Assembly (NCBI GenBank): GCA_963832655.1
Contig: CAWHUW010000009.1
Coordinates: 89,675 to 153,674, forward strand
Length of the DNA stretch: 64,000 nucleotides
Source of the DNA: an uncultured Thermoleophilia bacterium
Lineage (GTDB): Bacteria > Actinomycetota > Thermoleophilia > UBA2241
Direction of reading: 5' to 3'
A program made the position numbers and the translations under genes. Positions 25,627 through 60,245 of this stretch are shown here, one piece after another. Position 1 is the first letter of the stretch, and each line of letters begins with the position of its first letter. Under the pieces are notes generated by a model. That model did no database searches and was not told the DNA's origin. It was given only the letters and a program-made list of their open reading frames with translations.

Positions 25627-25661
25627 TTGCCGCATCAACTGTTGACAGTTTACAGTCCATC
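25627..25661 (+). promoter_or_regulatory. Promoter with overlapping heptad operator
   Basis: TTGCCG(25627)-N18-TACAGT(25651); ATCAACT-GTTGACA-GTTTACA-GTCCATC. Confidence 0.65.
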
Positions 25662-25771
25662 ATGCATGAGCTACGCAGTGGACGCTAACGCGCCGCTCGC
25701 GAAGGGCGACAGCACGTCCGGCGGGCAACGGGGCCGCGAACACAAGATCGCGAGACAGGAGAACAGCGACC

Positions 25772-26929
25772 ATGGGGAAGCGAACCGAGTTCCTGTACCT
25801 GTCCGAGCCGGACATGATCGAGGCCGGCGTCCTGGATGCACCACGCTGCGTCGACGTCTGTGAGGATGTCTTCAAGCTCCTCGCCACCGGCGACTACCTG
25901 ATGGGGGGCTCGAACCACAACAACCACGGCTTGGGCATCGAGTTCCCGGAGGAGTCGCCGTTCCCCAACATGCCGCTGGCGGGACCGGATCGCCGCTTCG
26001 TCGCGATGCCGGCCTACCTGGGCGGCAAGTACGACGTGTGCGGCAACAAGTGGTATGGCTCCAATCCCGACAACCCCGCCCGGGGCCTGCCGCGCTCGGT
26101 CCTGACCGTGATGCTCAACGACAAGGTCACCGGAGAGCCCCTGTGCCTCATGTCGGCGAACCTGCTGAGCTCCGCCCGCACAGGCGCGATCCCCGCCGTG
26201 GCCACGCGCTACCTGGCACGCCAGGACTCCGAGGTCTGCACCGTGATCGGCTGCGGCCCGATCAACAGGGCCTGCGTTCGCGCCATCGTCTCGCAGATGC
26301 CGAGCCTGAAGAGGGTGATCTGCCACGACCTTCACGGAGGAGAAGGCCCAGGCGTTCGCGGATTGGTCGCAGAACGATGCTCGGGATACCCGGTGTCGTT
26401 TCGACCTCGCTTGACGACTGCGCTCCGGGACGGCGATGTCGTGACCGTCGCGGCCTCGCGCCTGAAGACGCTCTACGTGGAGGACGCGTGGTTCAAGCGC
26501 GGGGCGACCGTGCTCCTCACCGGCCCGATGAAGGCGGAGGACTCCTTCTGGCTCAACAGCCGGATCGTCTACGACAACATCCACCTGCACGAAGCCTACG
26601 TTCTGGACGCGCTCGCCACTCCCGACAAGCTCAAGTACTACGACGGCGTCATCGGCGGACCGCTCTACAGGCTGATCGACGACGGCAAGCTGCCGTCGCT
26701 CGCCGACTCCACCGACCTGGGAAACGTCATCCTGGGCAACAAGAGTCGTCGTGAGAGCGCCGAGGAACGCATCGTCCTCGTCGCCTCCGGAATGGCCGTC
26801 TTCGACGTCGCCTGGGGATATGAGCTCTACCAGGCAGCCCTCGAGCGGGGACTCGGCCAGCGTCTCCTGCTGTGGGACCAGCCATATCGCGAAGCCGCTC
26901 CCCCGCCCAGCGTCCTGGCTGAGTCCTAG
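25772..26929 (+). CDS. Ornithine cyclodeaminase/mu-crystallin family protein ('tyramine oxidase subunit B'-like)
   Basis: 'DRRFVAMPAYLGG', 'KWYGSN', 'SARTGA', 'GCGPI', 'GMAVFDVAWG'. There is a possible compensated frameshift at ~26330-26400. Confidence 0.85.
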   Translation: MGKRTEFLYLSEPDMIEAGVLDAPRCVDVCEDVFKLLATGDYLMGGSNHNNHGLGIEFPEESPFPNMPLAGPDRRFVAMPAYLGGKYDVCGNKWYGSNPDNPARGLPRSVLTVMLNDKVTGEPLCLMSANLLSSARTGAIPAVATRYLARQDSEVCTVIGCGPINRACVRAIVSQMPSLKRVICHDLHGGEGPGVRGLVAERCSGYPVSFRPRLTTALRDGDVVTVAASRLKTLYVEDAWFKRGATVLLTGPMKAEDSFWLNSRIVYDNIHLHEAYVLDALATPDKLKYYDGVIGGPLYRLIDDGKLPSLADSTDLGNVILGNKSRRESAEERIVLVASGMAVFDVAWGYELYQAALERGLGQRLLLWDQPYREAAPPPSVLAES

Positions 26930-26949
26930 CGGACAGAGAGCAGTAAGGG

Positions 26950-28354
26950 ATGCGGAAGATCCGGAACTTCGAAGCACTGGTCTCGCACGGAGCAGCGGAC
27001 TCCAGGAGGGTGGTGCTGGAGATCGCCGACAAGACGCTCCAGCGGCTGGACGCCTACAAGCGGATCAAGAGCATCACGCGCCTGGAGGGGAGCTCCCTGC
27101 ACATCGGGACGCGGACCTGGGACCTCTCGAAGAAGCGGCACGTCTATCTCGTCGGCGCCGGAAAGGCGTGCAACGCGATGGCTGCGGCGCTCGACGAGAT
27201 CCTCGGCCACCACCTCAGCAAGGGGATCGCGATCGTCAAGGTCGCCGAGGAGGGAGACGTCTTCAGGAACACGGACGTCTACGTGGGCGGACATCCGCTG
27301 CCCAACGAGACCGGACACGAGGCCTCCCTGAAGATCCTGGAACTCGCGGACGGGGCGGGTCCCGACGACCTGTTCATCGCGGTGATCAGCGGGGGCAGCT
27401 CGGCTCTCATGAGCTGCCCCGATCGAGGGCATCTCCCTGCAGGACGAGATGGACGCGACGGACGTCCTGCTCAAGTCCGGCGCCGGCATCTACGAGATCA
27501 ATGCGATCCGGCGCCACATCTCGCAGACGAACGGCGGCATGCTGGCCAAGCGGATCCAGGCCTCCGGTGCCGAGCTGATCGGCTTCGGCATCTCCGACGC
27601 GGTCGGCAACCCGCCGACAGGCGACATCGGGATCCCGTACCGCGACTACGCGAGCACGCCGATCGGCCCCGACAAGACCACGCTCGATGACGCCCGGCGC
27701 GTCATCGCCGACTACGACCTGGCCGATCGGCTTCCCCCCGACGTCGTCCGCTACCTCATGGAGGCCGGGGACGATCGCGAGACGCCGAAGGCGTTTCCTG
27801 ACAATACGTACTTCGTGCTCAACACCGTGCCCGATTCGTGCATCTATGCGCGAGAGGTCGCCGAGGAGATGGGGGTCACCGCCCACATCCTGACTTCCTT
27901 CCTCGAGGGCGAGAGCAAGGATGCCGGCACGTTCTTCGCCTCGCTTGCCCGCGAGGTACAGGCCTACGGCAATCCGTTCCCGGCGCCGTGCGTGATCCTC
28001 AGCAGCGGAGAGACGACGACGAAGATCCCGGACAACGCCGCCGTCGAAGGACACGGAGGGCCGTCGCAGGAGCTCACCGCGAGCTTCGCCATCAGCGCCG
28101 CGAAGGCCCCCGGCGCGTGCATGTTCTCGGTGGATTCGGAGGGGACCGATGGGACCACACCCGCGGCCGGCGGTCTCACCGACTCCACGAGCTACGAGAC
28201 GGCCGTGGAGAAGGGCGTGAGCCTGCATGCCGCGCTGCGGGGCCACTCGTGCTACGAGGCGCTGGGGGCCATCGGCGACACGGTGTTCACCGGCAACACA
28301 GGAACGAACCTCTGCGACTTCAACATCCTCTACGTCCCGGCACTCGGGGACTAG
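26950..28354 (+). CDS. Glycerate 2-kinase type (DUF4147/MOFRL) kinase (frameshift near 27420)
   Basis: 'VGAGKA', 'GGHPLPN', 'ISGGSSALM', 'EINAIRRHIS', 'SGETT', 'DSEGTDG', 'TGNTGTNLCD'. Confidence 0.85.
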
Positions 28355-28405
28355 CCAGAGGCACACCACACGGCCACGCCACACCAGCGACGAAGCGAGT
28401 CACAC

Positions 28406-29674
28406 ATGAGGATCGAATCCGTGCGGGCACGGCAGCTCATCGACTGCAAGTGCCGGCCGATGGTCGAGGTCGAGGTCGAGACGGAGGGAGGGTTCGTCGG
28501 CAGGGGCGCCGCGCCCACAGGCCAGTCGGTGGGCATGTACGAGGCCTTCGTGCTGCGGGACGACGATCCCGATGAGTACGGCGGCCTCAGCGTGCACCGG
28601 GCCGTGGAGAACGTGCGGCAGGTCATCGCGCCGGCCCTCGTCGGGATGCCGGTCGACGACCAGCGCGCCCTCGACGGCGTGATGATCGCCCTCGATGGGA
28701 CGGAGAACAAGAGCAACCTGGGCGGCAACGCCATCTACTCGACCTCGATCGCCTGCTTCAGGGCCGCCGCCGCCGTCGCCGGAGTACCCCTCTATCGATA
28801 CCTCGGAGGGGACGGGCTCGCGACGGTTCCCGTGCCGAGCTTCAACATGGTGAACGGGGGCCGCTACGGCGACATGGTCCAACCGTTCAACGAGTTCATC
28901 GTCATGCCCTACAAGGCGGAGTCGATCTTCGAAGCGGTGGAGATGGGGGTCAGGGTCTTCGAGGTGATGGCGCATGTCCTGGAGCGGTATGTCGGGTCAC
29001 CACCCGAGGTGGCGCGCTCCTACGGCTACGTGGCGCCGTCTGAGGACCCCGAGGTCGTCCTCTCACTCATGCGGGAGGCGATCGATGCCTGCGGGTACGC
29101 CGACAAGATGGCCTTCGCGCTCGACTGCGCCTCGAGCGAGATGTACGACGCGGCGACCGCGACCTACTACCTCAAGGGGGAGCGCGTCAGCTCCGGCGAT
29201 CTGATCTCCTACGCCAAGGACCTGACCGAGAAGTTCGACTTGGTGTTCATCGAGGATCTCCTCGAGGAGAACGACTGGGATGGCTATGCCCGTGCGGTAC
29301 GGGAGATCCCGCGCACGATCATCCTTGGCGACGACCTCATCGCCACGAACCTGGCGCGTCTCCAGAGGGCCAGCGCCATGAGAGCGGTCGACGGATTCCT
29401 TCTCAAGCCGAACCAGGTCGGGACGATCTCGGAGGCTCTGGAGACCTACGAGTACGCCGTCGGGCACGGTCTCATCGCGGTCCCTTCCGGGCGCTCCGGC
29501 GGGGTCGTCGACGACGTGGTCATGGATCTGTCGGTCGGGCTCCAGGTGCCGTTCCAGAAGAACGGCGCGCCACGATCCGGAGAGCGCATCGAGAAGCTCA
29601 ACTTCCTCATGCGCGCGGCTGACACGATCCCCGACTGCCGCCTGGCCGATGTTGCCAGCATCGTGAAGTTCTAG
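28406..29674 (+). CDS. Enolase-family protein with divergent active site
   Basis: Enolase fold motifs 'DGTENKSNLGGNAI', 'ALDCASSE', 'FIED', 'GDD', 'KPNQVG'. Several catalytic residues are altered (see findings). Confidence 0.85.
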   Translation: MRIESVRARQLIDCKCRPMVEVEVETEGGFVGRGAAPTGQSVGMYEAFVLRDDDPDEYGGLSVHRAVENVRQVIAPALVGMPVDDQRALDGVMIALDGTENKSNLGGNAIYSTSIACFRAAAAVAGVPLYRYLGGDGLATVPVPSFNMVNGGRYGDMVQPFNEFIVMPYKAESIFEAVEMGVRVFEVMAHVLERYVGSPPEVARSYGYVAPSEDPEVVLSLMREAIDACGYADKMAFALDCASSEMYDAATATYYLKGERVSSGDLISYAKDLTEKFDLVFIEDLLEENDWDGYARAVREIPRTIILGDDLIATNLARLQRASAMRAVDGFLLKPNQVGTISEALETYEYAVGHGLIAVPSGRSGGVVDDVVMDLSVGLQVPFQKNGAPRSGERIEKLNFLMRAADTIPDCRLADVASIVKF

Positions 29675-29725
29675 GACCGGGTCTCTGGCGTGGTCCTCCG
29701 AGACACGGACGTGAGGAGTCGCAGC

Positions 29726-31033
29726 ATGGCGGACAACGAGCGACGAGCGCGGCGGCGCGACTTCTGGTCGCGGCCCGGCCTTGCGGTTCGCGGCGGGCGC
29801 CTCGAGATCGCCGGGCGCGACGCCGAGGCGCTGGCGCGCACGCACGGCACGCCTCTGTACGTCTTCGACCTGCAGAAGATCGGCGAGCAGGCGCGCGCGC
29901 TGCACGCGGCGCTCGAGGGCGTCGGTCTGCGTCATCGCGTGCTGCTCGCCGTGAAGGCGCAACGCGAGCCGGAGGTGCTCGCCTTCGTGCGCGGTCTCGG
30001 CGCGCCGGGCGAGCACGGGAGCGTCGGTCTCGACGTGTGTTCACCCGGCGAGTTGCTGCACGGGCTCGCCCACGGGTGGCAGGCCGACGAGATCAGCTAC
30101 ACCGGCACCAACGTGAGCGAGCGCGATCTCGACGTCATCCTGGCCCACGAGGTCCACCTGAACCTCGACCTTCTCAGCCAGATCCGCCGCGTGGGGCGCC
30201 GGGCGCCCGGGCGGCGGATCGGGCTGCGCATCAACCCGCGCGCCGGCGCGGCGTGGCGGGGCGAGAACGAGTCGCTCTACAGCAGCCACCGGCCGACGAA
30301 GTTCGGCATCTACCCGGAGCAGCTCGACGAGGCGGTCGCACTGGCGCGGGACTACGGCCTCATCGTCGACACCATCCACTTCCACGTCGGCGACGGCTAT
30401 CTCAGCGACGCCGTGCCTGCGTTCGGCGTCGCCGTCGACCGCGCCGCCCAGGTGGTCGAGAGGGCACGCTCCCTCGGCTGCCCCGTCGAGACGCTCAACG
30501 TCGGCGGCGGGCTGGGGGTGCCCATGGCTCCCGGCGACGCGCCCCTCGACGTGGCCGCCTGGGCGCGCATGCTTGCCGACCGCCTCGCCGGGCTCGACGT
30601 CACCGTGGTGGTCGAGCCGGGCGACTTCCTCGTCAAGGAGGCGGCGATCCTTCTCGGCGAGGTGGTGACCGTGGAGGACCGCATGGGCACCCCGTTCATC
30701 GGTCTCGACATGGGCTGGAACGTCATGAACGACCACTTCATCTACGAGGCGCCCTTCGAGTACGTCGTCTGCGCCCGTGCCGACGCGCCGCGGGAGCGGC
30801 GCGTCACCATCAGCGGCCACATCAACGAGGGCGACGACCTCTGGGCCGAGGACTACCCGTTCCCGGAGGTCGAGGAGGGCGAGATCGTCGCCTGCATCAA
30901 CGTCGGCGGCTACAACCAGGCGATGCAGATGCCGCACTGCCTGCGCCCACCGGCGCCGGCGGTCTACTTCGACGACAGGGACGCCGCGCCGGACGGCGCG
31001 GCCGCCTCACCGAGTGTCAGGAGGGCTGTATGA
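29726..31033 (+). CDS. PLP fold-type III decarboxylase (diaminopimelate decarboxylase-like)
   Basis: 'GTPLYVFD', 'AVKA' (PLP Lys), 'KFG', 'HFHVG', 'NVGGGLG', 'EPG'. Confidence 0.85.
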   Translation: MADNERRARRRDFWSRPGLAVRGGRLEIAGRDAEALARTHGTPLYVFDLQKIGEQARALHAALEGVGLRHRVLLAVKAQREPEVLAFVRGLGAPGEHGSVGLDVCSPGELLHGLAHGWQADEISYTGTNVSERDLDVILAHEVHLNLDLLSQIRRVGRRAPGRRIGLRINPRAGAAWRGENESLYSSHRPTKFGIYPEQLDEAVALARDYGLIVDTIHFHVGDGYLSDAVPAFGVAVDRAAQVVERARSLGCPVETLNVGGGLGVPMAPGDAPLDVAAWARMLADRLAGLDVTVVVEPGDFLVKEAAILLGEVVTVEDRMGTPFIGLDMGWNVMNDHFIYEAPFEYVVCARADAPRERRVTISGHINEGDDLWAEDYPFPEVEEGEIVACINVGGYNQAMQMPHCLRPPAPAVYFDDRDAAPDGAAASPSVRRAV

Positions 31034-32689
31034 GCGCAGTGACCCCGTCCGGTCAGCGGTACGACGCGGTGGTGATCGGCGGCGGCCACAACGGTCTGGT
31101 GGCGGCGTTCTACCTCGCTCGCGGGGGGCTCCGTACGCTGGTCCTGGAGCGTCGCGAGATGGTCGGCGGCATGGCCGTCACCGAGGAGTTCGCCCCCGGC
31201 TTCCGCGCTTCCCCGGGGGCGTACGTGCTGGCCATGCTCGGCGAGCACATCTGGCGCGACATGCGGCTCGCCGAGCGCGGCCTGCACGTCGACGCCTGCG
31301 GCCCGAGTCTGAATGTCTACCCGAGCGGCGCCCACTTCTGGATGGAGGAGCACGCCGTCGACGCGGCGAGGGAGGTGGGCCGCTTCTCGAAGAAGGACGC
31401 CGCCGCCTACCCGCGGTTCGACGAGGGACTGACGCGGATCGCGCGCTGGTTCGGGCCGCTCTTCGGCCTCACGCCTCCCGACCTCAGCATGCGGACGCGC
31501 CGCCGACTGGGGCCGAATGGCCCGCCTCGGCGGCACGGCGCTCAAGAACCGCAAGCAGCTGCTCGACGCCTACCAGCTCATGATGGCGTCGAGCACGACC
31601 TACCTGGACGAGCGCTTCGAGTCGGACGAGGTCAAGGCGGGCCTCGCCTGGTTCTCGATCAACGACTCGGTCTCGGGGCCTTCGACCCCGGGCACCGCCT
31701 ACACGCTCCTGCACGAGTACGCCTCCTCGGAGGCCGGCGGCGGCGTGCGCAAGTGGGGCTTCGTGCGCGGCGGCATCGGCATCCTGGGCCGGCTCATGGC
31801 CGACGCCGTGCGCGAGGCAGGCGGCGAGGTGCGCACGAACGCCGCCGTGGAGCGCGTGCTCGTCTCGGGCGGGCAGGCGACCGGCGTGCTCCTGGCGGGC
31901 GGCGAGGAGATCCAGGCCCCGCTGGTGGTCTCCAACGCCGATCCCAAGACGACCATGCTCGGCCTCGTCGGCGAGGAGAACCTCGACGCCGGCTTCTGCA
32001 GCTCTCTCAAGACGTTCATCACCGACGGCACGAGCATCAAGGTGAACCTGGCGCTGGGCGCGCTGCCCAAGCTGGCCTTCCCGGCGCTCAACGACGGCGA
32101 CGGCGTGCAGCGCTACCACCGCAGCATCATCGAGCTGACCAGCTCGATCCGCCAGATGGACCTCAACCAGGCCGAGGCGCGCGCCGGCATCCCGGCCAAG
32201 GACTATCCCCATGTCGAGTGCTGCTTCCCCACGGTCTTCGACCCGTCGCTGGCGCCGGAGGGCAAGCACATCATGACCATCGACATGAACTCGCAGCCCT
32301 ACACCTTGCGCGACGGGTCGAACTGGGACGACATCATCGGCGACGTCGCCGACCGCTGCATCAAGCAGCTGTGCGACTGCTTCCCGGGGCTCGACGGCAT
32401 GATCGAGCATCGGCAGACGCTCTCGCCGCTCGACATGGAGCGCCTCTTCAACGCCACCGGCGGCCACGCCCTGCACGGAGACATGGGCGACCACCAGATG
32501 TTCTTCTTGCGCCCCGTGCGCGGCTGGGCCAGCTATCGGATGCCCGTCCGTAACCTGTACCTCTGCGGCGCCGGCACCCATCCGGGAGGCGGCATCTCGG
32601 GAGCCAACGGGACCAACTGCGCCAACGAAGTGCTCCACGACGCGAAGAAGATGAAGCTCGCGGCGAAGCCCGGGGGCGACGGGCGATGA
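31030..32689 (+). CDS. FAD-dependent oxidoreductase, phytoene dehydrogenase-related (COG1233) (frameshift near 31500)
   Basis: 'IGGGHNGLVAA.YLA', 'GGMAVTEE', 'GFVRGG', 'NLYLCGAGTHPGGG'. Confidence 0.85.
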
Positions 32690-33051
32690 GCGGCCTGCCG
32701 GCGATCGGCAACGCGGCCGGGGTGCCGCTCGAACCGGAGGACTTCGCTCCCGGGGCGGTCATCGAGGGATCGCCGCGCATGATGAGCCACGACCTCTACG
32801 TCTCGCCCGACGAGCGCGTGTTCAGCGGCATCTGGAGCGTCACGCCCGGCAGGTTCCACGACGTGATGGACGGCGACGAGACCTTCGTCGTGCTCGCCGG
32901 CCGCATGACCGTCGAGCCCGAGGACGGCAGCCCGCCGTTCGAGGTCGGGACGGGCGACGTCTGCGTGTTCGCGGCGGGCTACCGCAGCGTGTGGACGGTT
33001 CACGAGACGATCGTCAAGGGGTACCACATCGAGCTGCCGGCGGGAGGCTGA
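32686..33051 (+). CDS. Cupin, DUF861/EutQ-like
   Basis: 'SGIWSVTPG.F', 'ETFVVLAG', 'WTVHETIVK.Y'. Confidence 0.85.
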   Translation: MSGLPAIGNAAGVPLEPEDFAPGAVIEGSPRMMSHDLYVSPDERVFSGIWSVTPGRFHDVMDGDETFVVLAGRMTVEPEDGSPPFEVGTGDVCVFAAGYRSVWTVHETIVKGYHIELPAGG

Positions 33052-33058
33052 CACGGCG

Positions 33059-34251
33059 GTGCCGCCGGCAGAGCCGGCCTCGCCGTCCGCGGCGGGCGCA
33101 CCTCCGCCCGCGCTCGGCGCGAGCGCGCTCGCGAGCGCGCTCGCGTGGGCGCGCGACGAGCTGGTGCGCCTGGTCGAGATCCCCTCGCCCTCCGGCGAGG
33201 AGGCGGCCGTCGTCGACTACCTGGAGGGTCGCGATCGCCGAGCTCGGACTGCCGGCGCGGAGGGACCCCGTCGCCGGCGGCTGCGACAACCTCGTCGTCG
33301 GCTGCCCCTTCGAGCCCCGGCTCGCGCTGGTCGCGCACGTCGACACGGTCAAGCCCACCTGGGAGTGGGACGGCGAGGCGCGCGTCCAGGGCGACGAGGT
33401 CTGGGGGGTCGGCTCCGTCGACGACAAGGGCAGCGTGGTCGCCGCGCTGCTGGGACTGCTGCTGGCGCGCGACGCCGGCGTGCCCGTCGTCGACCTTCCG
33501 CTGAGCGTGGGGCTCACGGTCGACGAGGAGGAGGGCGGGACCGGCTCGATCGCCCTCGCACGCTCGCTGCGCCCGCGCCACGCCCTGGTCATGGAATCGT
33601 CGGAGTTCGACATCGCCGTCGCCGAGGCGGGAGTGGTCGAAGTCATGCTCGCGGTGCACGGGCGGAGCGCTCACGGCTCCGTGCCCGAGCAGGGCGACAA
33701 CGCGGTGGTCAAGGCGGCGCGGCTCGTCGTCGCCCTCGACGATCTTCCGTTCCTGCGCCGGGCGCACCCGCTGATCGCGCCGGCCGTCGTCGTCCAGCAG
33801 ATGCACGGCGGCTCGGATCTTCACGTGGTGCCCGACCTGGCCGAGGTCCACCTGGACGTGCGTCTCGGTCCGAACCTGCGCCCGCAGGAGGTGTTCGCCG
33901 AGCTGAGGCGCGCTGGCTGCCCGTCACGACGCGGAGGTGCGCACCATCGAGCTCGCCGACGCCTGGGAGACGCCGGCCGACGCGCCGTTCGTCGCAAGTC
34001 TGCGTCGCGTGGTCGCCGAGACGCTCGGCCGCGAACCTGAGCTCTTCGGGTTCCCCGCCTGGACCGACGCCCACAACATGGTGGAGGTGGGCGGCGCGCA
34101 GGCGGTCGTGTTCGGGCCGGGGCCGCGGCTCTCGACGGCGCACCGGCCGGACGATCACATCGACCTGCGCGAGGTGCTCGACTGCGCGTTGGTGGTCAGG
34201 CGCCTGGCGTGGGACCTGTGGCGCGCCGGCCCCGACTGGCCCGCGAGCTGA
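33059..34251 (+). CDS. M20 family metallo-amidohydrolase (ArgE/DapE-like); frameshifts near 33230 and 33910
   Basis: 'IPSPSGEE', 'AHVDTV', 'GSVDDKG', 'DEEEG', 'GRSAHGS', 'FGPG...AHRPDDHI' spread over three frames. Confidence 0.8.
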
Positions 34252-34710
34252 CGGCGGCGAGCGGCCAGTCGACAAGAGCGCGCCGTGGCGAGGATCTGGA
34301 CGCCGCCGGCGAGCAGCGCGAGCCGCAGCCACAGGTCGGGCCAGGAGAGCGTCTCGCCCCCGTCGCCGAAGCAGCCGCAGCCGATCTCGAGGCCGCGGAG
34401 CAAGGCGCTGGTGAGGGCGCCGGTGTAGACGGCCGCCAGGGCGGCCGTCACGAGCCCGGCGCCCGGCGTCCACAGGCCCGCGATCAGGCAGACGCCCGTC
34501 ACGAGCTCGACCCAGGGCAGGACGATGGCGGTCGCGTTGACGAGCCCCAGCGGCAGGATGCGGTAGTCGTCGATCGCGTCGGCGAAGGGCTGCGGGTCGA
34601 GCAGCGTGTCGAGGCTCGCGTACACGAGCACGGCGCCGGCGGCGAGGCGCAGCACCAGGGTGAGCCGCCGGTCGCCGAGGAGGCGGCCGAAGCCTGCGCG
34701 CGGCGCTCAC
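34155..34710 (-). CDS. MauE/DoxX family redox-associated membrane protein (both ends uncertain, likely frameshifted)
   Basis: 'LPWVELVTG', 'RGLEIGCGCFG'; adjacent to the rhodanese stop. Confidence 0.75.
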
Positions 34711-49487: not shown

Positions 49488-49533
49488 ACGAGTCCGGAGC
49501 GGCGGCCGCGGCGTCGTCGCGGCCGCCGCCCAC

Positions 49534-51062: not shown

Positions 51063-51092
51063 GTTGACTGTCGACACTTGACTATGTAGCAT
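51063..51092 (+). promoter_or_regulatory. pot operon promoter with heptad operator
   Basis: TTGACT-N17-TAGCAT; GTTGACT-GTCGACA-CTTGACT. Confidence 0.8.
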
Positions 51093-51156: not shown

Positions 51157-52266
51157 ATGAGCACGAAGAGCCGCGGGCTCGCGATCCTCACCCTGGTCGT
51201 CCTGGCCCTGGCCGTCCCGGTACTGGCGGCGTGCGGGGACGAGGAGGCCAGCCCCTCGCCGAGCGCCACGGCGCCCGTCGAGGTCTCCGGTGAGCTCACC
51301 CTGTTCGCTTACGAGGACGGCTTCGTTCCGAAGTACATGAAGCCGTTCAAGGAGGCCTACCCGGACGTCGATCTCAGGGCGAGCGCCTACGACAGCGGCG
51401 ACGCCGCCATCGCCAAGATGCGCGCGGGGTTCGAAGCTGACGTCATCAACCTCTGCGTGGAAGAGAACGCCGAGCAGGCCGTGCGACTCGGTCTCGTGCA
51501 GCCGCTCGACGTGAGCCGTCTGACGCACTGGGACGAGATGTTCCCGGTGTTTCTGACCCTGCCCGCCGTGACGGCCGAGGACGGCCAGCACTACCTGGCG
51601 CCGGTCGACGCCGGGGTGACCGGGGTCCTCTACGACACGACCAAGGTCACCGAGAAGCCGACGTCGTTCATGGACCTCTTCGACCCCAAGTACGAGGGTC
51701 AGGTCGCGATGATCGACTACCCGGTGACCGCGATCCAGGTGGGCGCCCTGGCGCTCGGCTACGAAGACCCGATCAACCTCACGCCCGAGCAGCTCGACGC
51801 GGTGAAGAACCTCTACATCGAGGCCAAGCAGCGCGGCCAGTTCCGCACCTTCTTCTCCAACGACTCCGAGATCGTCGCTCTGTTCCACACCGGCGAGGTC
51901 ACGATCGCCGTGGGCTACCCGGGGAACGCGCTGGACTCGCAGCGCGAGGGCGACCCGGTGGAGTTCTCGATCTGCAAGGAAGGGCAGATCGTCTGGACCT
52001 GCGGCTACGGTATCAGCAAGACGTGCAAGAACATCGACGCCGCCTACGCACTGATCGACTACTACCTGTCGCCCGAGGCGCAGGCGTTCGAGGTCAATGA
52101 GTGGAGCTACTTCCCCACCCTCGAGACCACGCTCGACCTGCTCGACCCGAAGGTGCGCGTGCAGGCCGAGATCGTGCGCGAGTGGGGGAACATCGTACCG
52201 GCGGCCCCGCCGGCCGAAGGCTACGACGAGTGGATCCGCGCCTGGCAAGAGGTGAAGAGGAGCTAG
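51157..52266 (+). CDS. potD: PotD-like ABC substrate-binding lipoprotein
   Basis: RBS AAGGAGG; lipobox LAAC; closely similar to 38857-39978; first gene of the ABC operon. Confidence 0.88.
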   Translation: MSTKSRGLAILTLVVLALAVPVLAACGDEEASPSPSATAPVEVSGELTLFAYEDGFVPKYMKPFKEAYPDVDLRASAYDSGDAAIAKMRAGFEADVINLCVEENAEQAVRLGLVQPLDVSRLTHWDEMFPVFLTLPAVTAEDGQHYLAPVDAGVTGVLYDTTKVTEKPTSFMDLFDPKYEGQVAMIDYPVTAIQVGALALGYEDPINLTPEQLDAVKNLYIEAKQRGQFRTFFSNDSEIVALFHTGEVTIAVGYPGNALDSQREGDPVEFSICKEGQIVWTCGYGISKTCKNIDAAYALIDYYLSPEAQAFEVNEWSYFPTLETTLDLLDPKVRVQAEIVREWGNIVPAAPPAEGYDEWIRAWQEVKRS

Positions 52267-53183
52267 TGGCGCAGGCCGTACTGCAGAACCCTGGGGCGGC
52301 ACCGGGCGAGGGTGGCATCCCCGTCGCGCAGGTGCCGCTCGGCCTTCGCGTGCGGCGTTCTCTCGACGCCGTCGGGGGGCGCACCTACGCGATCGTGTTC
52401 ATCATGCTGCTCTACGGCCCGCTCGTCCTGCTGGCGGCATTCTCGTTCAACGACTCCATCGTCTTCTCGTTGCCGTGGAGCGGCTTCACGACGAAGTGGT
52501 ATTCGGAGGCGTTGTCCGATTCGAACCTCCGCCAGGCGCTGCGGAACTCGGTGATCGTGTCCAGCATCGTCGCTCCGGCGAGCGTCATCCTCGGGACCCT
52601 CGCCGCGTACCCGATCACCCGTCTGCGCTTCAAGCTGCGCGGCGGGGCCGCCATGCTTCTCGCCGCGCCGCTCGTGGTGCCTTGGCTGGTGATCGGCATC
52701 AGCGCGCTCATCTACTTCAACAAGGCGGGGGTCGCCCTGTCGTGGCACACGGTCGTGCTCATGCACATCGTGGTCACGTTCCCGCTCGTCACGGTGCTGA
52801 TGTCGGCGAGCATGGCGCGTTTCGACCGCACCCAGGAGGAGTCGGCCATCGACCTGGGGGCGTCCCAGCTGCAGGTCGTGCGCCACGTGCTCCTGCCTCA
52901 CATCGCGCCGTCGCTGATGGCCTCGTTCATCCTCGCCTTCTCGTGGTCGTTCAACAACTTCGAGATCACCTACTTCGTCGGCGGCTTCGACCAGCTCTTC
53001 CCGGTCTGGGTGTACTCCACCCTGAGACATGCCTCCAACCTGCCGATCGTCAACGCCGTCTCCACACTCGTCTCGATCGTCGAGGTGCTGCTCGTCTACA
53101 CCTTCTGGGTGCTCATAACCCGGGGCGCCGGCGCCCGCACCTCGAAGGAGAAGACCGACACCCTCATGGAGTCGATCCGCTGA
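52266..53183 (+). CDS. potC: Polyamine-type ABC permease (PotC-like)
   Basis: 'LYGPL..L..FSFN', 'GFTTKWY', EAA loop 'EESAIDLGAS'. Confidence 0.88.
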   Translation: MAQAVLQNPGAAPGEGGIPVAQVPLGLRVRRSLDAVGGRTYAIVFIMLLYGPLVLLAAFSFNDSIVFSLPWSGFTTKWYSEALSDSNLRQALRNSVIVSSIVAPASVILGTLAAYPITRLRFKLRGGAAMLLAAPLVVPWLVIGISALIYFNKAGVALSWHTVVLMHIVVTFPLVTVLMSASMARFDRTQEESAIDLGASQLQVVRHVLLPHIAPSLMASFILAFSWSFNNFEITYFVGGFDQLFPVWVYSTLRHASNLPIVNAVSTLVSIVEVLLVYTFWVLITRGAGARTSKEKTDTLMESIR

Positions 53184-54079
53184 TGGCCACCGTGGCTCCG
53201 TCCGCTCCCAAGGACCGCCAGCTCCGCGCCCGCGCGGTCAAGAAGTTCCGCCCGGTCGCGTTCCTGACTGCTCCGATCGCCGTGATCCTGCTCCTGTTCG
53301 TGGCGCCGCTCATCATCCTCGTGATCATGAGCTTCCGCTTCGAATCGCTGTACGGGTTCCAGACTGGGTGGACGCTCGACAACTTCCGGCTTCTGTTCAC
53401 CGATCCCATCTACCGCGGAGTGGCCAAGGACACGCTGATCATCGCCACCACGGCCATGGTGTGCCAGCTCCTGATCGCCTTCCCGCTGTCGTACTTCATC
53501 GCCTTCAAGGCAGGCCGGTGGGAGCTGCCGCTGCTCCTGCTGCTCGTGCTCGTCGACGAGCTCAACCCCATCGTCCGCATCTACGCCTGGCGCATGCTGC
53601 TCGGGAGGGAGGGGCTGATCAACGACTTCCTGATGTGGACCGGGATCGTCGACGCCCCCCTTGACTGGCTTCTGTTCACGAAGTTCTCGGTGATCCTCGT
53701 GCTCTCGACCAGCTGGGTGAACTACTGTGCCTTGCCCATCTACGCGTCGATGAAGGCCATCAACCCGGCCCTCTTCGAGGCGGCGACGGATCTCGGCGCC
53801 GGCTGGTTCACGCGCTGGCGTCGCGTCCTGCTGCCCCTCGCCGCGCCCGGCATCTTCGTCGCCGTCATCCTCGTGTACATCCCGCTGTTCACCGACTTCG
53901 CGACCCCGGGTCTGGTCGGCGGCACGTCGTCGTACATGCTCGGTAACTCGGTCGCCGACCTCATGGTCACTATCGGCGACTGGGGTGGCGGCGCCGCGCT
54001 GAGCCTCTTGCTGCTGGGGGCGATGGCGGTCGTCGCGGTGATCGCGTACTTCCTCACCAAACTCAACCAGCTCGACTGA
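53183..54079 (+). CDS. potB: Polyamine-type ABC permease (PotB-like)
   Basis: 'WTLDNF', 'VRIYAW..LLGREGLIN', 'FEAATDLGA', 'DWGGGAALS'. Confidence 0.88.
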   Translation: MATVAPSAPKDRQLRARAVKKFRPVAFLTAPIAVILLLFVAPLIILVIMSFRFESLYGFQTGWTLDNFRLLFTDPIYRGVAKDTLIIATTAMVCQLLIAFPLSYFIAFKAGRWELPLLLLLVLVDELNPIVRIYAWRMLLGREGLINDFLMWTGIVDAPLDWLLFTKFSVILVLSTSWVNYCALPIYASMKAINPALFEAATDLGAGWFTRWRRVLLPLAAPGIFVAVILVYIPLFTDFATPGLVGGTSSYMLGNSVADLMVTIGDWGGGAALSLLLLGAMAVVAVIAYFLTKLNQLD

Positions 54080-54105
54080 GCTGCGACCGGTCCCGAGGAG
54101 AGCGA

Positions 54106-55239
54106 ATGAACGACACCCCCGCGCAAGGCCATATCAGGATCGAGCGCGTCACCAAGAAGTTCGGCGACACGGTGGCGGTCGACGACGTGACGTTCGAGAT
54201 CCCGGGCGGCGAGTTCTTCTCGATGCTCGGGCCGAGCGGCTGCGGCAAGACGACCACGCTGCGCATGATCGCGGGGTTCGAGGACCCCACGGCGGGGCGC
54301 ATCATCCTCGAGGGCAAGGACGTGAGCTTCGTGCCGCCGGCGAAGCGCAACGTGAACATGGTCTTCCAGGCCTACGGCCTCTTTCCGCACATGACGGTCA
54401 GCCAGAACGTCGCCTTCGGGCTCAAGGTGAAGAAGGTCGCGAGAGCCGAGATCGCCGAGCGCGTTCAGGAGGCGCTGCGCACGGTGCGCATGGACGCCTT
54501 CGCCGATCGCCGGCCGGCCCACCTTTCCGGCGGCCAGCAGCAGCGCGTCGCGCTGGCCCGGGCGCTGGTCAACCGGCCGGCCGCGCTGCTGCTCGACGAG
54601 CCCCTGGGCGCCCTCGATCTCAAGCTCCGCAAGGAGATGCAGCTCGAGCTCAAGCGCATCCACGCCACCACGGGGACGACCTTCGTCTACGTCACCCACG
54701 ACCAGGAAGAGGCGCTGACGATGTCGCAGCGCATCGCGGTGATGAAGGACGGCATCGTGCAGCAGGTGGCGACGCCGCGGGAGCTGTACGAGAAGCCGGC
54801 GAACGCCTTCGTGGCCGGCTTCATCGGCACCTCCAACGTGATCAGCGTGCAGCCAGGCGGTGCGCGCGACGGCGTCGCCGTGATGGACCTCGGCGACGGG
54901 GACCGTGTGTGCGTGCCGGACGTCGGCGCGGGAGCTGGTCCAGTGAAGATCATCGTGCGGCCCGAGCGCATGCGCGTGTGGGGCGACCCGGACGGCGAGC
55001 GTATCTCGCGCGTGCGCGGCACGATCGCCGAAGTCGTGTACCTGGGCTCCATGACGCAGTTGATCATCGACCTCAAGACCGGCGAGCGCGTGACCGTGCA
55101 CGAGCTGAACGACGACCTCAAGGGCGCGCTTCCCGAGATCGGCGACCCGGTCCTGGTCCAGTGGGCCGCCGAGAGCAGTTACGTGATCGACGACGCCGGC
55201 GCTGTCAACGTCGCGGCCGGCTCGGCTTCACCCGATTGA
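54106..55239 (+). CDS. potA: Polyamine-type ABC ATPase (PotA-like)
   Basis: [42 protein letters not shown] tail. Confidence 0.93.
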
Positions 55240-55297
55240 CGGCGCCGGCGGCCAGCCGGCGCATGTCGTCACAGGCACATCATCCACCAGAAGGAGC

Positions 55298-57105
55298 GTG
55301 CAAATCGTGGACTTCTACACCGGCAAGGTCCTCAGGATCGACCTGAGCGCCGGCGCCACCGCCGTCGAGCCGCTCGACCTGGACTGGGCGCGGCTCTACC
55401 TGGGCGGCAAAGGCCTCCTGTTCCGCTACCTGTGGGACGAGGTCGCGCCGGGGCTGGACCCCGCCTCGCCCGCCAACCCCCTGATGCTCGTCACGGGGCC
55501 GTTCGCCGGCACCAACGTGACCACCGCGTCGCGCCTCGTCGTGGGCTGCAAGAGCCCCACGACGGGGACGATCCTCGACTCGTACGTCGGCGGCTCGTTC
55601 GCGCCCGAGATGAAGTTCGCGGGCTACGACATCATCATCCTCACGGGCGTCGCGCCCGAGCCCACCGTGGTCTGGATCAGCGACGACGTGGTCGAGTTCC
55701 GCTCGGCGACGCCGTACCTGGGCATGAAGACGTCGGAGGTCGAGGAGGCGCTGCGCAACGACCTCGACGGCGACGCGAAGGTGCTCTCCATCGGTCCGGC
55801 CGGGGAGAGCAGGATCCCGTGGGCCTGCCTGTCGACCGATCAGTACCACAAGGCAGGCCGCGGCGGGGCCGGCGCCCTCATGGGCATGAAGAACGTCAAG
55901 GCGGTCGCCATCCGCGGCACGGGCGCCGTGCCCGTCGGCGACGCCAAGGCCTTTCTCGACGCGATGTATGCCCTGCACCACGACTACATCCTCACCGACA
56001 CCAATCTGTGGGCGCACGAAGAGGGCACGCCGATGCTGGTCGACGTGATCAACGGCGGCGGCGCGCTGCCGACGCGCAACTATTCGTCCGGCACCTTCGA
56101 AGGCGCCGACAAGATCAACTCCGAGTCCTTCCAGAAGATCCGCGTCAAGAAGCGCGCCTGCTACCAGTGCGCCATCGGCTGCCGCAACTTCCACGCCACG
56201 AAGTGGGCCGGAGCCGAGGTGCGCGGCGAGGGCCCCGAGTTCGAGACCATCGCCCTCTGCGGCTCGAACTGCGGCATCGACGACATCGACGCGCTGATGA
56301 AGTTCAACGAGCTTTGCGACGAGCTCGGCATGGACACGATCTCTTCGGGCTCCGTGGTCGGTCTGGCCATGGATCTCTGCGAAAAGGGCTACGCCGATTT
56401 CGGTCTCGCCTTCGGCGACAGCAAGGGCTATCTGCAGGCGGTGGAGCTGATGGCGAAGCGCGAGGGCTTCGGCGCCGAGCTGGCGCTCGGCGCAAGGCCC
56501 TCGCCGCCAAGTACGGCCACCCCGAACTCGCCATGCAGGTGAAGAACATGGAGGTGCCCGGGTACGACCCGCGGGGCGCCTTCGGGATGGCGCTCAGCTA
56601 CGCGACATCCGACCGCGGAGCCTGCCACATGCGGTCCTTCCCCGTCGGCCAGGAGATCGTCGAGGGCTCGATGCCCGCCGACACCTTCGAGGGCAAGGCC
56701 GAGTGGATCGTGAACGCCGAGGCCGGCGGCCAGAACTTCTTCGCCCTCAAGTTCAGCGGCATCTGGTGCGACTTCTGGGCGATCGACCTCGAGCAGATCG
56801 CCATGCTCATGAAGCACCTGTGGGGCCGCGAGTTCGCGCGCGACGAGCTCATGCAGATCGGCGAGCGCATCTGGAACCTCGGGCGGCTGTTCAACTTGCG
56901 CGAGGGGCTCACGATCGCCGACGACGCGCTGCCCGAGCGCATGCACGAGCAGCGCTTCGCGGAGGGCGCGGCGGCGGGCAAGGTGATCGACCGCGCCGCC
57001 TTCGCCGACGCCCTGCAGGAGTACTACGCCATCCGCGGCTGGGATGCCGCCGGCGTCCCCTCAGAGGCCAAGCTCGCAGAGCTCGGCGTCGACGTGCGCC
57101 TCTAG
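55298..57105 (+). CDS. aor: Aldehyde:ferredoxin oxidoreductase (W/Mo-bis-pterin AOR family); frameshift near 56495
   Basis: 'YLGGKG', 'KSP.TG', 'SIGPAGE', 'AGRGGAGA.MG.KN.KA', CxxCxxxC, 'GPEFET', 'CDELGMDTIS', 'PGYDPRG', 'RGACH', 'YY..RGWD'. Confidence 0.9.
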
Positions 57106-57141
57106 ACGACCGTCCGGCGAGAGACGAAGGGACACACAGAC

Positions 57142-57639
57142 ATGCCTCACGTGATGATCAGTTCCAAGAAGTGCACCGGCTGCCACATGTGCGAGCTCGC
57201 CTGCTCGGCGCAGCACGAGAACGCCTACCGCCCCTCGGTCGCGCGCCTCTTCGGCGAGGTCAACCCGACCACGGGCGCCATCAAGGGCCACACCTGCCTG
57301 CAGACCGGCTGCGCCAAGTGCCAGGAGGCCTGCCCCAACGACGCCATCGTGACGAAGGAGATCACCGTCAAGGTCAAGGGCGACTTCGCCGGCCGCGAGA
57401 AGCTCGGCGACACCGTCAACGGCTACGTGCTCGTCGTCGTCGACGACCTCTGCACCAACTGCGGCGAGTGCTACGACGTCTGCCCCACCGGGGTCATCCA
57501 CGAGCACCCCGACCGCGAGGTCGCCTTCAAGTGCGACCTCTGCGACGGCGAGCCCCAGTGCATCGCCTTCTGCCAGAACCCCCACGTCCTCGCCGTCGAC
57601 CTCAAGGTCGACAAGATGGACCGGGAGCTGCAGGCGTAG
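57142..57639 (+). CDS. Multi-[4Fe-4S] ferredoxin-like subunit, AOR partner
   Basis: CTGCHMCELAC, CLQTGCAKCQEACP, CTNCGECYDVCP, KCDLC...C...C. Confidence 0.9.
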   Translation: MPHVMISSKKCTGCHMCELACSAQHENAYRPSVARLFGEVNPTTGAIKGHTCLQTGCAKCQEACPNDAIVTKEITVKVKGDFAGREKLGDTVNGYVLVVVDDLCTNCGECYDVCPTGVIHEHPDREVAFKCDLCDGEPQCIAFCQNPHVLAVDLKVDKMDRELQA

Positions 57640-57795
57640 GGGCATGGCGGCGGGGCCGGCCGGTCAACTACGCGCAGCAGGGCGTTGACGATTGGAATAG
57701 GTGGGTTACGGGGCGTGTGACGTTCGGAGGGCCGCGGTGCGGCGACGGGCTGCAAGCCCTGCGCCGCACCGCGGCCACAGATCCTGGAGGTAGTC

Positions 57796-59841
57796 ATGAG
57801 ACGCATCGCCATCACCATCCTCGCCGTCCTGTTGATCGCGGGAACGTCGGCGCCGGTCGCTGGCGCCAAGGTCCGACCGATGACCTTCGACACTGCGGTC
57901 GACAGCTTGATCGCCGGCGGATACGCGAAGCGCGTCGCAGGCGATCTCTGCGGTCTCGGAACGTCGCCCTTCGGCTTCCGCGTGGGCGGCACGACCGCCG
58001 ACGACGCGGCCGCCCGCTACATCGCCGCCGAGATGCGCGCGATCGGCCTCAAGAACGTTCGACTCGAGCCTGTGGCGATGGACGTGTGGGAGTACCGCGG
58101 CGGCAGTGTCGCGGTCGCCGGCAACGTGTACGACGCGACGTCGTTCACCGGCGTGCCGGGGACGTTGCCCAAGGGGGTCACGGGGGAGGTCGTCGACGTG
58201 GGCTTCGGCACGGCCGCGGACTTCGACGCCGCCGGCGACGTGCACGGCAAGATCGTGCTGGTCGACTTCCACGGCGACGCGTTCTGGGCGAACCTGCCCG
58301 GGCACGAGGCGACCCTGAGGGGAGCCGTCGCGCTGATCCTCACGACGTCGACCGCCGATCTGAGCTTCTTCGCCGACCCCGACAGTCTCGGGAGCAACGA
58401 CGGCGAGTACGACCCCGACTGGATCCCGCTCGTCTCCGTCAGCAGGACGACCGGCGACACCATCCGCGCCGCGCTGGCCGGCGGTCCCGTGGCGGCGACG
58501 GTCAAGCTCGACGCGATCACGACGCGGTCCTTCGACGGCGGCGAGGGCTACAACGTCGTGGGAGAGCTTCCCGGCAGCGCGGGCGGCGCCGAGAAGGTCG
58601 TCATGGCCGGGCACCACGACGCGTTCTTCCAGGGGGCTCTCGACAACACGACGGCCGTGGTGGCCGGACTGGTCACCGCCAAGGCCATGCAGATGGCGGG
58701 CTACGTGCCCCGGCGCACGCTGGTCTTCGTGTCGCACACGGGCGAGGAAGGCGGGATCGTCGACTCCTGGTACGACTGGACCTTCGGTTCCTGGGTGCAG
58801 GCGACGCAGACCCACCCGGAGTGGGCGGGAACGGTGGCCGGCTTCCTCAACTTCGAGATGCCGGGGGCGCCCGACGGTCAGGTCCGCCTGTTCATGAGCC
58901 CCGAGCTGCAGCCGGCGGTGTCGGAGGTGGTCGCCGCGAACGGCAAGCTCAAAGGCCCCGGCCTGCCGACCCGGCTGTACCCCGTGGTCGGCACCAACAG
59001 CGACGAGTGGCCGTTCACGGCCGCCGGCATCCCCTCGGTGCTTCTCGTCGGCGCACCGGACAGCTGGTTCCCGTGGAACTACCACACGACGAACGACACC
59101 GTCGACGCGGTCGACTGGCCCTTCTTCGGCACCTGCGTGAAGCTCATGCATCGGATCGGGCTGCGCCTGGACGAGTCGCTGGTCCCGTACAGCCTGGCTG
59201 CCCGCGCCGACCAGCTGGGCGGCACGGTCGATGCCCGCGAGCTGACCGCCGCGGGGGCCTCGGCCGCCACCGTCGACCGGCTCACCAGGTCGCTCGGGGA
59301 GTTCACGTCCGCGACGTACGCCTTCGAGAAGCGAAGGGCAATGCTGCCCGCGTCCGTGTGGTCGCAGACCAGCGCGCGGCTCATGGCGATCGAGAAGCTT
59401 CTGAGCAGCAACTTCACCGCCCTCAGCTGGTGGGACGACACGATCTACCCGCACGAGCAGGTGCTGTGGGACCTCCAAGGGGTCAATGCGGCCATCGGTG
59501 CTCTGGACCGGTCGCAGCCCCAGCTCAGGGCGGCGCTCGACGCGCTGGCCGGGGTCGGCTACTCGTACTACGGCCTGCTCGCCAGCGAACCCGTCTACCT
59601 TCATGAGCTGGACCGGCACGACCCGGACTACTGGGCGATCGCCTGGGGCGGCCAGGGACACCTTCCGCAGCCGATCGACGTCATGCCGGAGTACCGGCTG
59701 GTCGGATCGGGCGACTATGGCGCCGCTCTCGAGGGGCTGCGCGCCGAGCGCGGCAGGCAGATAGGGCAGTTGAACGAGCGTCTGGCGGCGATCGCCGACG
59801 TGCTCGCAGCGGCGACGCCGCAGGTGAACGCCCTGCGCTAG
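57796..59841 (+). CDS. Secreted M28 family peptidase with PA domain
   Basis: Signal peptide, PA domain 'GEVVDVGFGT...DVHGKIVLV', 'GHHD', 'GALDN', 'GEE', 'SDEWPF', 'YHT..DT'. Confidence 0.85.
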   Translation: MRRIAITILAVLLIAGTSAPVAGAKVRPMTFDTAVDSLIAGGYAKRVAGDLCGLGTSPFGFRVGGTTADDAAARYIAAEMRAIGLKNVRLEPVAMDVWEYRGGSVAVAGNVYDATSFTGVPGTLPKGVTGEVVDVGFGTAADFDAAGDVHGKIVLVDFHGDAFWANLPGHEATLRGAVALILTTSTADLSFFADPDSLGSNDGEYDPDWIPLVSVSRTTGDTIRAALAGGPVAATVKLDAITTRSFDGGEGYNVVGELPGSAGGAEKVVMAGHHDAFFQGALDNTTAVVAGLVTAKAMQMAGYVPRRTLVFVSHTGEEGGIVDSWYDWTFGSWVQATQTHPEWAGTVAGFLNFEMPGAPDGQVRLFMSPELQPAVSEVVAANGKLKGPGLPTRLYPVVGTNSDEWPFTAAGIPSVLLVGAPDSWFPWNYHTTNDTVDAVDWPFFGTCVKLMHRIGLRLDESLVPYSLAARADQLGGTVDARELTAAGASAATVDRLTRSLGEFTSATYAFEKRRAMLPASVWSQTSARLMAIEKLLSSNFTALSWWDDTIYPHEQVLWDLQGVNAAIGALDRSQPQLRAALDALAGVGYSYYGLLASEPVYLHELDRHDPDYWAIAWGGQGHLPQPIDVMPEYRLVGSGDYGAALEGLRAERGRQIGQLNERLAAIADVLAAATPQVNALR

Positions 59842-60245
59842 CTTCGTGGGCAACGCGTGCCGGATCGGCCACTGCTCGCCACAGTCGATCGTGACGTGGG
59901 AGAGCGCGGTCAAGGGGGACAACCCCGGCCGCGAGAAGACGGACGGCACCGCCTGCGGCCACGCCCCTGTGTCCATGCCTGGCAACGCTTTCCGCCCCGG
60001 GCGGCCCCCGGCCGGACGGAGGCGCGCTAGACTGTGCGTCTCACGGCCCTCGGCTGGCAGTCGACTGTTTACAATCGGCTGAATGGGCTGTACGGTGTGC
60101 CCGACCGCCGTCCTCGCGGCGCGGCGCAGACACAGGCTGCGCAAGGCCGTGAGTCGAGGGGAGAGGAGTGGCTCCGCAAGGTGCGCTGGGGTGAGCACGG
60201 GCCCCCCTGACAGTTCTCACGTACTCGAGCCATCTGGGGGTAACC

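Follow-up and report, generated by a model that had tools for sequence, protein, structure and literature searches.

The 64-kb stretch of DNA analyzed here (the window; contig CAWHUW010000009.1, G+C content 70.3%) contains an island of genes whose intergenic regions share a short palindromic motif. As judged from sequence, this motif is quite likely the operator of a GntR/FCD (FadR-subfamily) regulator of 222 amino acids encoded within the island (36830..37498, + strand), and thus defines the regulon of that protein. At residues 10-72 the protein matched PF00392, the winged helix-turn-helix domain of GntR proteins (64.8 bits, cutoff 27), and at residues 82-205, towards the C-terminus, it matched PF07729, the all-helical FCD effector domain (83.4 bits, cutoff 24.3). 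Residues D133, H137, H181 and H203, which we take to be the FCD metal-site pattern, were invariant in 19 homologues. Many homologues were found at 55-92% identity, with few named ones, from Thermoleophilia, Gaiellales and Actinomycetota metagenome-assembled genomes (MAGs). The GntR was taken as the probable binding protein because of the enrichment of the motif, its exclusivity to a few places in the window, its co-occurrence with the regulator gene, the conserved regulon, the fit to the operator rule of the family, and the lack of any other regulator in the island. On this last point, genes were mapped from codon-position G+C together with Pfam and NCBIfam models, and the scans with these models presented no second regulator gene in the island and only a TetR gene, at 4632-5306, elsewhere in the window.

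Seven sites, O1 to O7, make up the set. They are given below with hexamers set apart by hyphens and with the score (bits) of a position weight matrix (PWM) described further on; a strand is assigned to O3 only.

25634..25654: O1, ATCAAC-T-GTTGAC-A-GTTTAC; PWM 25.8, minus strand at 25633; upstream of the operon starting at 25772
36706..36726: O2, GTCGAC-T-GTTGAC-A-GTCTAT; PWM 26.4; between the divergent class III aminotransferase (-) and GntR (+) genes
36814..36826, + strand: O3, partial, GTAGAC-T-GTCAGC; PWM 16.0, marginal; proximal to the GntR ATG
38782..38802: O4, GTCGAC-T-GTCGAC-A-GTACGA; PWM 29.1; upstream of the operon of PotD-like binding protein and GntG-family genes
41052..41072: O5, GTAGAC-T-GTCGAC-A-GTAAAC; PWM 25.8 and 26.0; upstream of the grd-type cluster (41095 onward)
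51063..51083: O6, GTTGAC-T-GTCGAC-A-CTTGAC; PWM 27.6; between the divergent Fer4 gene (-) and the operon at 51157 (+)
60053..60073: O7, GCTGGC-A-GTCGAC-T-GTTTAC; PWM 21.2, above the null mean; upstream of the secreted protein gene at 60246-61882

The initial annotation, made from the letters of the window, had quoted seven heptad strings as sites of a GntR operator overlapping promoter boxes. All seven strings were present where it had placed them, and all seven were intergenic. When at most one mismatch was allowed, ACTGTYGACAGT gave 10 strand matches at five places (25638, 36710, 38786, 41056 and 51067) against 0.20 expected, a count reached in 0 of 100 shuffles. The exact pattern GACTGTYKACA had five matches, on the + strand only, with 0.05 expected, and the strict pattern GTNNACWGTNNAC, searched on both strands of the window, had seven matches at six places, every one of them intergenic. 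Matches to the heptad pattern GTYGACWGTYGACW with 0 or 1 mismatch were likewise confined to the claimed sites.

A PWM scan, which the initial annotation had proposed for the genome, was carried out over the window with a matrix drawn from relatives. An alignment of the 19 GntR homologues was used to scan one genome per species, yielding 80 loci (L001-L080). Twelve of these, with 53-80% identity to the window GntR, are the orthologue loci (L001-L012, 211 kb in total), and the others showed 31-45% identity (L013-L080, 1119 kb). The PWM was built from 24 sites of L001-L012 only, leaving out the sites of the window. Scanned over the window, it picked out exactly seven places above 12 bits, at 38782 (29.1), 51063 (27.6), 36706 (26.4), 41052 (25.8), 25633 (25.8), 60060 (21.2) and 36814 (16.0), and no other position exceeded that score. 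In 100 Markov simulations, the maximum score had a mean of 14.0 and a largest value of 22.4. Two of the quoted strings needed adjustment. The string at 60060 was present, but its best palindrome register begins at 60053. For the site quoted at 36800, the last heptad and the 3′ part (36814, GTAGACTGTC) are conserved in L009, but the heptads GTCCACG and GTCCATG are not.

The full site is an imperfect palindrome of about 20 bp, made of three GTNNAC hexamers in a 7-bp phase, with the consensus GTAGAC-T-GTCGAC-A-GTCTAC. When 30 sites were aligned to the 20-bp dyad, the center hexamer was GTNNAC in 29 of them and the half-site matrix was symmetric. One outer hexamer was perfect in 29 of 30 sites, a figure partly due to the way the sites were collected, and both were perfect in 1 of 30. 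The weak arm still matched GTMGACT at 4.07 of 7 positions, compared to 1.9-2.9 for control boxes further out (Mann-Whitney p = 1e-6). The spacer base between hexamers is T or A, and this, together with the dyad alignment, bears out the earlier description of heptad units that are both direct and inverted repeats ending in A or T. The three-heptad architecture proposed there also stood, except that the third heptad is degenerate in most sites. Put most economically, the site has a GT-N2-AC core palindrome (ACTGTYGACAGT) that is flanked at +/-7 bp by auxiliary GTNNAC boxes. Two simpler descriptions were rejected: a pure 13-bp palindrome centered on W leaves the conserved A at position 14 and the GT at positions 15-16 unexplained, and a purely direct-repeat reading leaves unexplained the mirror change at positions 6 and 15 that is seen in boxes of more distant, PhnR-type relatives (see below).

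Comparison across the orthologue loci supports the assignment of the motif to this regulator by phylogenetic footprinting. In 11 of 12 loci, a site scoring at least 16 with the PWM was found within -300 to +30 of the start of the GntR gene, and the same neighboring families recurred. In the remaining locus, L010, a 23.9-bit site follows the GntR gene and precedes the next one, and a second site is present at 146-154. In this locus, from a Mycobacterium sp. MAG (11884-14130), the GntR gene is followed by a binding protein gene and then by a fused phosphotransferase (APH)/class III aminotransferase gene, and its operator is of the AT-richer type, lying 3′ of the regulator gene rather than 5′. 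The density of the strict pattern was 1.18 per 10 kb in L001-L012 (25 occurrences in 211 kb), compared to 0.07 per 10 kb in L013-L080 (8 occurrences in 1119 kb). Some strict-pattern sites were flagged as lying inside genes, an artefact of the gene caller taking the first start codon; on inspection they are 5′ of the real starts.

The 24 strict-pattern places in L001-L012 divide into 13 that adjoin the GntR gene (11 loci) and 11 that adjoin families found in the island of the window. The latter include the PF09338 Grd subunit gene (L003, L005 and L011), the amine oxidase gene (L001, L008 and L012), the Orn/DAP decarboxylase gene (L009), the enolase gene (L012) and the binding-protein/aldolase operon (L009), while in L003 strict sites lie by a divergent class III aminotransferase/permease pair and by an alkaline-phosphatase-family gene. 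Sites detected by the PWM only were located upstream of the amine oxidase gene in L002 and between the GntR and binding-protein genes in L004 and L007. In loci with another gene order, the sites have moved together with the promoters: the decarboxylase gene of the window follows the enolase gene without a gap, whereas that of L009, parted from enolase by an opposite-strand gene, has a site of its own. The arrangement at O4 recurs in L009 at 11958. Between the window and L009, the 5′ region of the GntR gene retains two conserved islands, one made up of O2, a block common to both, plus some 25 bp of promoter, and a second made up of TGGTAGACTGTC just before the ATG (O3). No other regulator was conserved across L001-L012, HxlR being present in only 3 of 12 loci.

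The sites also coincide with predicted promoters, as the initial annotation had indicated. A relaxed rule (TT plus at least four of six matches in the -35 box, a spacer of 16-19 nt, and TANNNT), applied to both strands of the window, gave only 10 matches, and six of these overlap the six main sites (O1, O2 and O4-O7):

25627-25656, + strand: promoter-like TTGCCG-18-TACAGT; O1 on the spacer and -10
36747 to 36719, - strand: promoter-like TTGCGA-17-TAGACT of the aminotransferase gene; O2 on the -10 and start region
38774-38802, + strand: promoter-like TTGCGA-17-TACGAT; O4 fills the spacer
41029-41058, + strand: promoter-like TTGACC-18-TAGACT; O5 on the -10 and start, the -10 being the first O5 hexamer
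51064-51092, + strand: promoter-like TTGACT-17-TAGCAT; O6 on the -35
60068-60096, + strand: promoter-like TTTACA-17-TACGGT; O7 on the -35

A strict sigma-70 scan from 25.4 to 62 kb returned two promoters, both among these six. At O3, TAGACT ends 9 nt 5′ of the GntR ATG, with spacings of 6-11 nt in L008, L009 and L012, and GGTAGACTGTC, directly 5′ of the GntR start codon, is kept in the same three loci. The position of TAGACT near the ATG suggests a leaderless, autoregulated transcript. Beside O2, inside the predicted spacer of the aminotransferase promoter, there is also a perfect 12-bp palindrome, ATGACCGGTCAT (36728-36739), with one change in L009; it may be bound by a second protein, or its conservation may be no more than that of a promoter spacer.

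Loci L013-L080 place the motif in a wider family. A site scoring at least 16 lies upstream of the own GntR gene in 31 of these 68 loci, and about 30 of 33 box sequences read like TGTAGATTGTYRACAATCTRCA (TTGT..ACAA type). These boxes keep the dyad of three hexamers, but have T/A at mirror positions 6 and 15, where the window type has C/G. The contrast in the strict pattern between L001-L012 and the remaining loci still holds because the box of the relatives has T at position 6. Seven of eight such proteins tested exceeded the cutoff of the NCBIfam model TIGR03338 (phnR_burk). This was also the best NCBIfam model for the window GntR, with 146.8 bits against a cutoff of 271.5 (L001: 139.3), and the window protein is thus a relative of PhnR rather than a member, since its score is below the cutoff. 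The recognition helix SRGPVREA is identical in the window-type and PhnR-type groups, while the wing and helix 1 differ, although the window-type consensus used for this comparison includes the rows of L009 and L012 one base out of frame, which adds noise. An identical recognition helix with a differing wing and helix 1 is in keeping with operators that have the core in common and differ at an outer position.

Neighbors of the PhnR-type genes include phnS2T2U2, phnW, phnA, phnY and pbfA, with 2-aminoethylphosphonate genes in L033, L036, L048 and L073. Burkholderiales PhnR genes within L024-L080 (e.g. L026 near 9907, L036 near 3015, L048 near 6830 and L073 near 3905) are preceded by a palindrome of about 22 bp of the TGTAGATTGTYRACAATCTRCA type, which sits between the divergent phnS2T2U2-phnW and phnR-phnA-phnY operons. 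Among the genes scanned in the window, no phnW, phnA, phnY or phnS2T2U2 was found at the cutoff. The binding protein at 51091 matched phnS2 with only E = 3.6e-14, and the aminotransferase scored 183 bits against 525 for PbfA.

Several observations weigh against the GntR operator assignment. With up to three mismatches allowed, the loose heptad GTYGACWGTYGACW showed no overall enrichment (49 matches, 47.1 expected), so the signal resides in the good copies rather than in a genome-wide heptad bias; this loose pattern was dropped and replaced by the stricter patterns and the PWM. The fixed positions of the PWM are circular, as its sites were gathered by a pattern derived from the window, and its independence is limited to the N positions, the flanks and where the sites lie. 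The sites at 60060 (21.2) and 36814 (16.0) fall individually within the null and are not statistically outstanding alone, because the null maximum reaches 22.4 bits; the 36814 site is backed by its conservation in related loci. Promoter overlap is partly built in, given that the motif itself holds TTGACA-like and TAGACT-like hexamers. The half-site C-T-G-T (positions 6-9) matches the TKGT/ACMA box at three of four positions, a deviation that is absent from the PhnR-type relatives, whose half-site TTGT is a full TKGT match. L013-L080 were rejected as negative controls, since 31 of 68 carry a related box 5′ of their own GntR gene; these loci are relatives and not a clean negative set, which weakens their use as a control while supporting a family-wide motif. 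The distribution of the motif is known from the 64-kb window and from loci of relatives, of which the closest found is 80% identical, and sites may occur at unrelated promoters elsewhere in the genome. Finally, binding by the GntR, the sign of regulation, the stoichiometry and the effector are all points that we infer.

It is rather improbable that the sites are real but bound by another factor encoded outside the window, such as a global or nitrogen/amine regulator, with the GntR gene merely a member of the regulon. The genome beyond the window was unseen and no identical locus was among those returned, which leaves room for such a factor. However, the motif accompanies the GntR gene in 12 of 12 orthologue loci from different MAG lineages and also accompanies PhnR-type relatives in Betaproteobacteria, its GT-N2-AC form is typical of the GntR family, and no other regulator gene is conserved in the orthologue loci (HxlR, 3 of 12). 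We also consider it very improbable that the motif is a promoter element for RNA polymerase or a dedicated sigma factor. The hexamers resembling TTGACA and TAGACT, and the coincidence with 6 of 10 relaxed promoter matches, would suit such an element, but the register differs from site to site, with the motif on the -35 at O6 and O7, on the spacer at O1 and O4, and on the -10 and start at O2, O3 and O5. This variation speaks for a repressor that occludes the promoter rather than for a sigma-factor element, and dyad symmetry over about 20 bp and co-variation with the GntR clade are further points against such an element. Chance similarity, or a small dispersed repeat of no regulatory role, has a probability close to nil: only the marginal scores of 36814 and 60060 speak for it, and it is effectively refuted by 10 matches against 0.20 expected, all intergenic and at positions conserved in other genomes.

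Given binding by the GntR, activation or dual regulation at some promoters is unlikely. O6 and O7 cover the -35 region, where activators can also sit, but O2, O3, O4 and O5 cover the spacer, -10 or start, the classical position for occlusion, and NanR is a repressor released by its effector (PMC8012715). An autoregulated regulon is well supported for the window GntR, and its sites, as read from their positions, are probably repressing.

Characterized members of the GntR family are mostly repressors released by an effector, and a similar mechanism can be proposed for the operator of the window. The core TGTYGACA, extended to ACTGTYGACAGT, would be the canonical GT-N2-AC palindrome of the FadR subfamily, bound by one dimer. 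The outer hexamers, of which one is strong and the other weak, would serve as auxiliary boxes and probably bring in additional subunits or dimers; if NanR is a guide, adjacent hexamers might be occupied by two or three dimers. The sites would cover the -35, spacer or -10/start of six predicted sigma-70-type promoters, as well as the putative leaderless-type promoter of the GntR gene itself, and from this overlap a bound protein would occlude RNA polymerase, resulting in repression and autorepression. A small molecule bound by the FCD domain would then release the GntR.

The genes associated with the sites, in addition to the GntR gene, are as follows.

25772..34414, + strand: putative operon under O1, with OCD family, split DUF4147/MOFRL glycerate kinase, enolase, Orn/DAP decarboxylase, flavin adenine dinucleotide (FAD) amine-oxidase-like, EutQ-like cupin and M20 peptidase genes
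35194..36627, - strand: class III aminotransferase under O2, divergent from GntR; the same divergent pair occurs in L008, L009 and L012
37734..41032, + strand: two PotD-like binding proteins and a GntG-family (threonine-aldolase-like) pyridoxal phosphate (PLP) aldolase
41095..49645, + strand: grd-type cluster, with PF09338 subunit, GrdB-type selenoprotein, component C beta, thioredoxin, GrdA selenoprotein, SMP-30, SDR, MBL and binding protein genes
Start ATG at 51020, - strand: Fer4 gene, divergent from the operon at 51157
51157..59841, + strand: binding protein, two permeases, ATPase, split aldehyde:ferredoxin oxidoreductase, ferredoxin and M28 peptidase; likely start ATG at 51157
60246..61882, + strand: secreted protein with an apparent frameshift near 61150, downstream of O7

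Both selenoprotein genes of the grd-type cluster have an in-frame TGA, at 45483-45485 in GrdA (45375-45815; ...CFVUTAAG) and at 43383-43385 in the GrdB-type protein (42339-43655; ...LTGTUGTGTRCG). Related loci show the same grd split, with GRDA models matching from position 47 onward. Component C beta (43717-45033) passed its model with 527 bits against 450. The PF09338 substrate-specific subunit (41095-42375) fits no named family in NCBIfam, its best scores being 190.6 bits for GrdG, the sarcosine reductase model (cutoff 780), and 140.4 for FarE, the fluoroacetate reductase model (cutoff 675). Because this subunit is below every named-family cutoff, the Grd-type reductase may have an undescribed substrate. 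In the literature searched, no paper joined glycine reductase with Thermoleophilia.

Six genes of the window are split between reading frames and could be assembly errors or pseudogenes: glycerate kinase (26950-28354), M20 peptidase (32991-34414), a binding protein (48371-49645), aldehyde:ferredoxin oxidoreductase (55298-57105), the secreted protein (60246-61882) and an alkaline-phosphatase homologue (62571-63740). For the secreted protein gene, neither frame tested had a Pfam match. The segment 60246-61150 encodes a signal-peptide-like start followed by a proline run, and its product contains, by eye, a histidine-rich HNHT..SDG-like motif that we take to resemble those of metal-dependent phosphoesterases. 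The gene after O7 was ruled out as the counterpart of the L003 alkaline-phosphatase homologue, which is located at 62571-63740 (three frames) with no site above 12 bits before it. A 13-bp all-G+C hairpin at 61913-61942, directly 3′ of the secreted protein gene, probably indicates where the last operon of the island ends.

Across the loci, the conserved core consists of the GntR, a PotD/PhnS2-like ATP-binding cassette (ABC) system, class III aminotransferases, the amine oxidase and decarboxylase, and the grd-type cluster. This gene set suggests that an amine or amino acid is taken up and degraded, but nothing beyond that. The initial annotation had linked all these operons into one pathway; co-regulation of the island genes is supported, but one pathway is not established. 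The motif is very probably where the GntR docks. As a switch it is of an ordinary kind, but the genes that it joins under common regulation, for amine degradation and selenium enzymes, are an unusual combination. The result is a concrete regulon for an uncultured high-GC lineage, with seven sites, one regulator and about 30 genes, in which seemingly unrelated genes would be switched together (OCD/glycerate kinase/enolase, aminotransferases, polyamine-type transporters, grd-type selenoenzymes and aldehyde:ferredoxin oxidoreductase). Once identified, the effector of the GntR would lead quickly to the substrate of the Grd-like reductase, whose B component falls outside the named families.

A bolder interpretation, which we find possible but doubtful, is that the operator marks a catabolic regulon of soil Thermoleophilia-like Actinomycetota that is conserved but undescribed. 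Here a PhnR-related sensor would control uptake (the PotD/PhnS2-like ABC system), deamination (class III aminotransferases, the FAD amine oxidase, the PLP decarboxylase and the PLP aldolase) and a selenoprotein reductase of a divergent Grd type, the substrate-specific B component of which belongs to no named Grd or Far family. Two or three dimers, wound round the helix, would read the 7-bp-phased triple hexamer without an extension of the NanR type. If this were true, the effector of the GntR would name the substrate of a new reductase branch.

Among the closest known systems are those of the FadR subfamily. Their published operator consensus (PMC4494728) is NyGTNxACNy, where x is 2 or 3 and is 2 in several groups, and weaker extra boxes are found at 7-12 nt. 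The window-type sites conform to this palindrome with x = 2 and are located in the promoter regions of the regulator's own gene or of adjacent operons. The likeness to that account (PMC4494728) extends to a winged helix-turn-helix and FCD protein, a palindromic GT-N2-AC core, own and neighboring promoters, and weaker adjacent boxes. The system of the window differs in that one outer box is as strong as the core in 29 of 30 sites, in its tight 7-bp phase, and in having CTGT in place of TKGT. What is new compared to FadR-subfamily systems is the lineage (Thermoleophilia-like MAGs) and the regulon content.

In E. coli, NanR is an FCD-type GntR repressor released by an effector, three dimers of which bind (GGTATA)3 cooperatively, one dimer to each repeat, and cooperativity between dimers requires a 32-residue N-terminal extension (PMC8012715). 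The window sites resemble this operator in having two or three hexamer repeats at a fixed short spacing. Unlike NanR, the window GntR has no such N-terminal extension, its GntR domain starting at residue 10 of 222, and whereas the NanR repeats are purely direct, each hexamer here is palindromic and the whole site is dyad-symmetric.

The named family that fits the protein best is that of the Burkholderiales-type PhnR proteins (TIGR03338), GntR/FCD regulators associated with phosphonate utilization. They share with the window GntR an identical recognition helix and a three-hexamer palindrome, which in PhnR loci lies 60-200 bp upstream of the gene, and beside the regulator their loci also hold genes for an ABC transporter of PotD/PhnS2-like type and for a protein resembling class III aminotransferases. 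In comparison, the window GntR is about 31-45% identical to them and below the model cutoff, and positions 6 and 15 of its operator are C/G, while those of PhnR are T/A. No published operator for a GntR-type PhnR was found in the literature searched, a search that did not extend to the supplements of PMC4494728 or to RegPrecise. Within that literature, the palindrome described here is apparently the first candidate operator for the wider PhnR clade.

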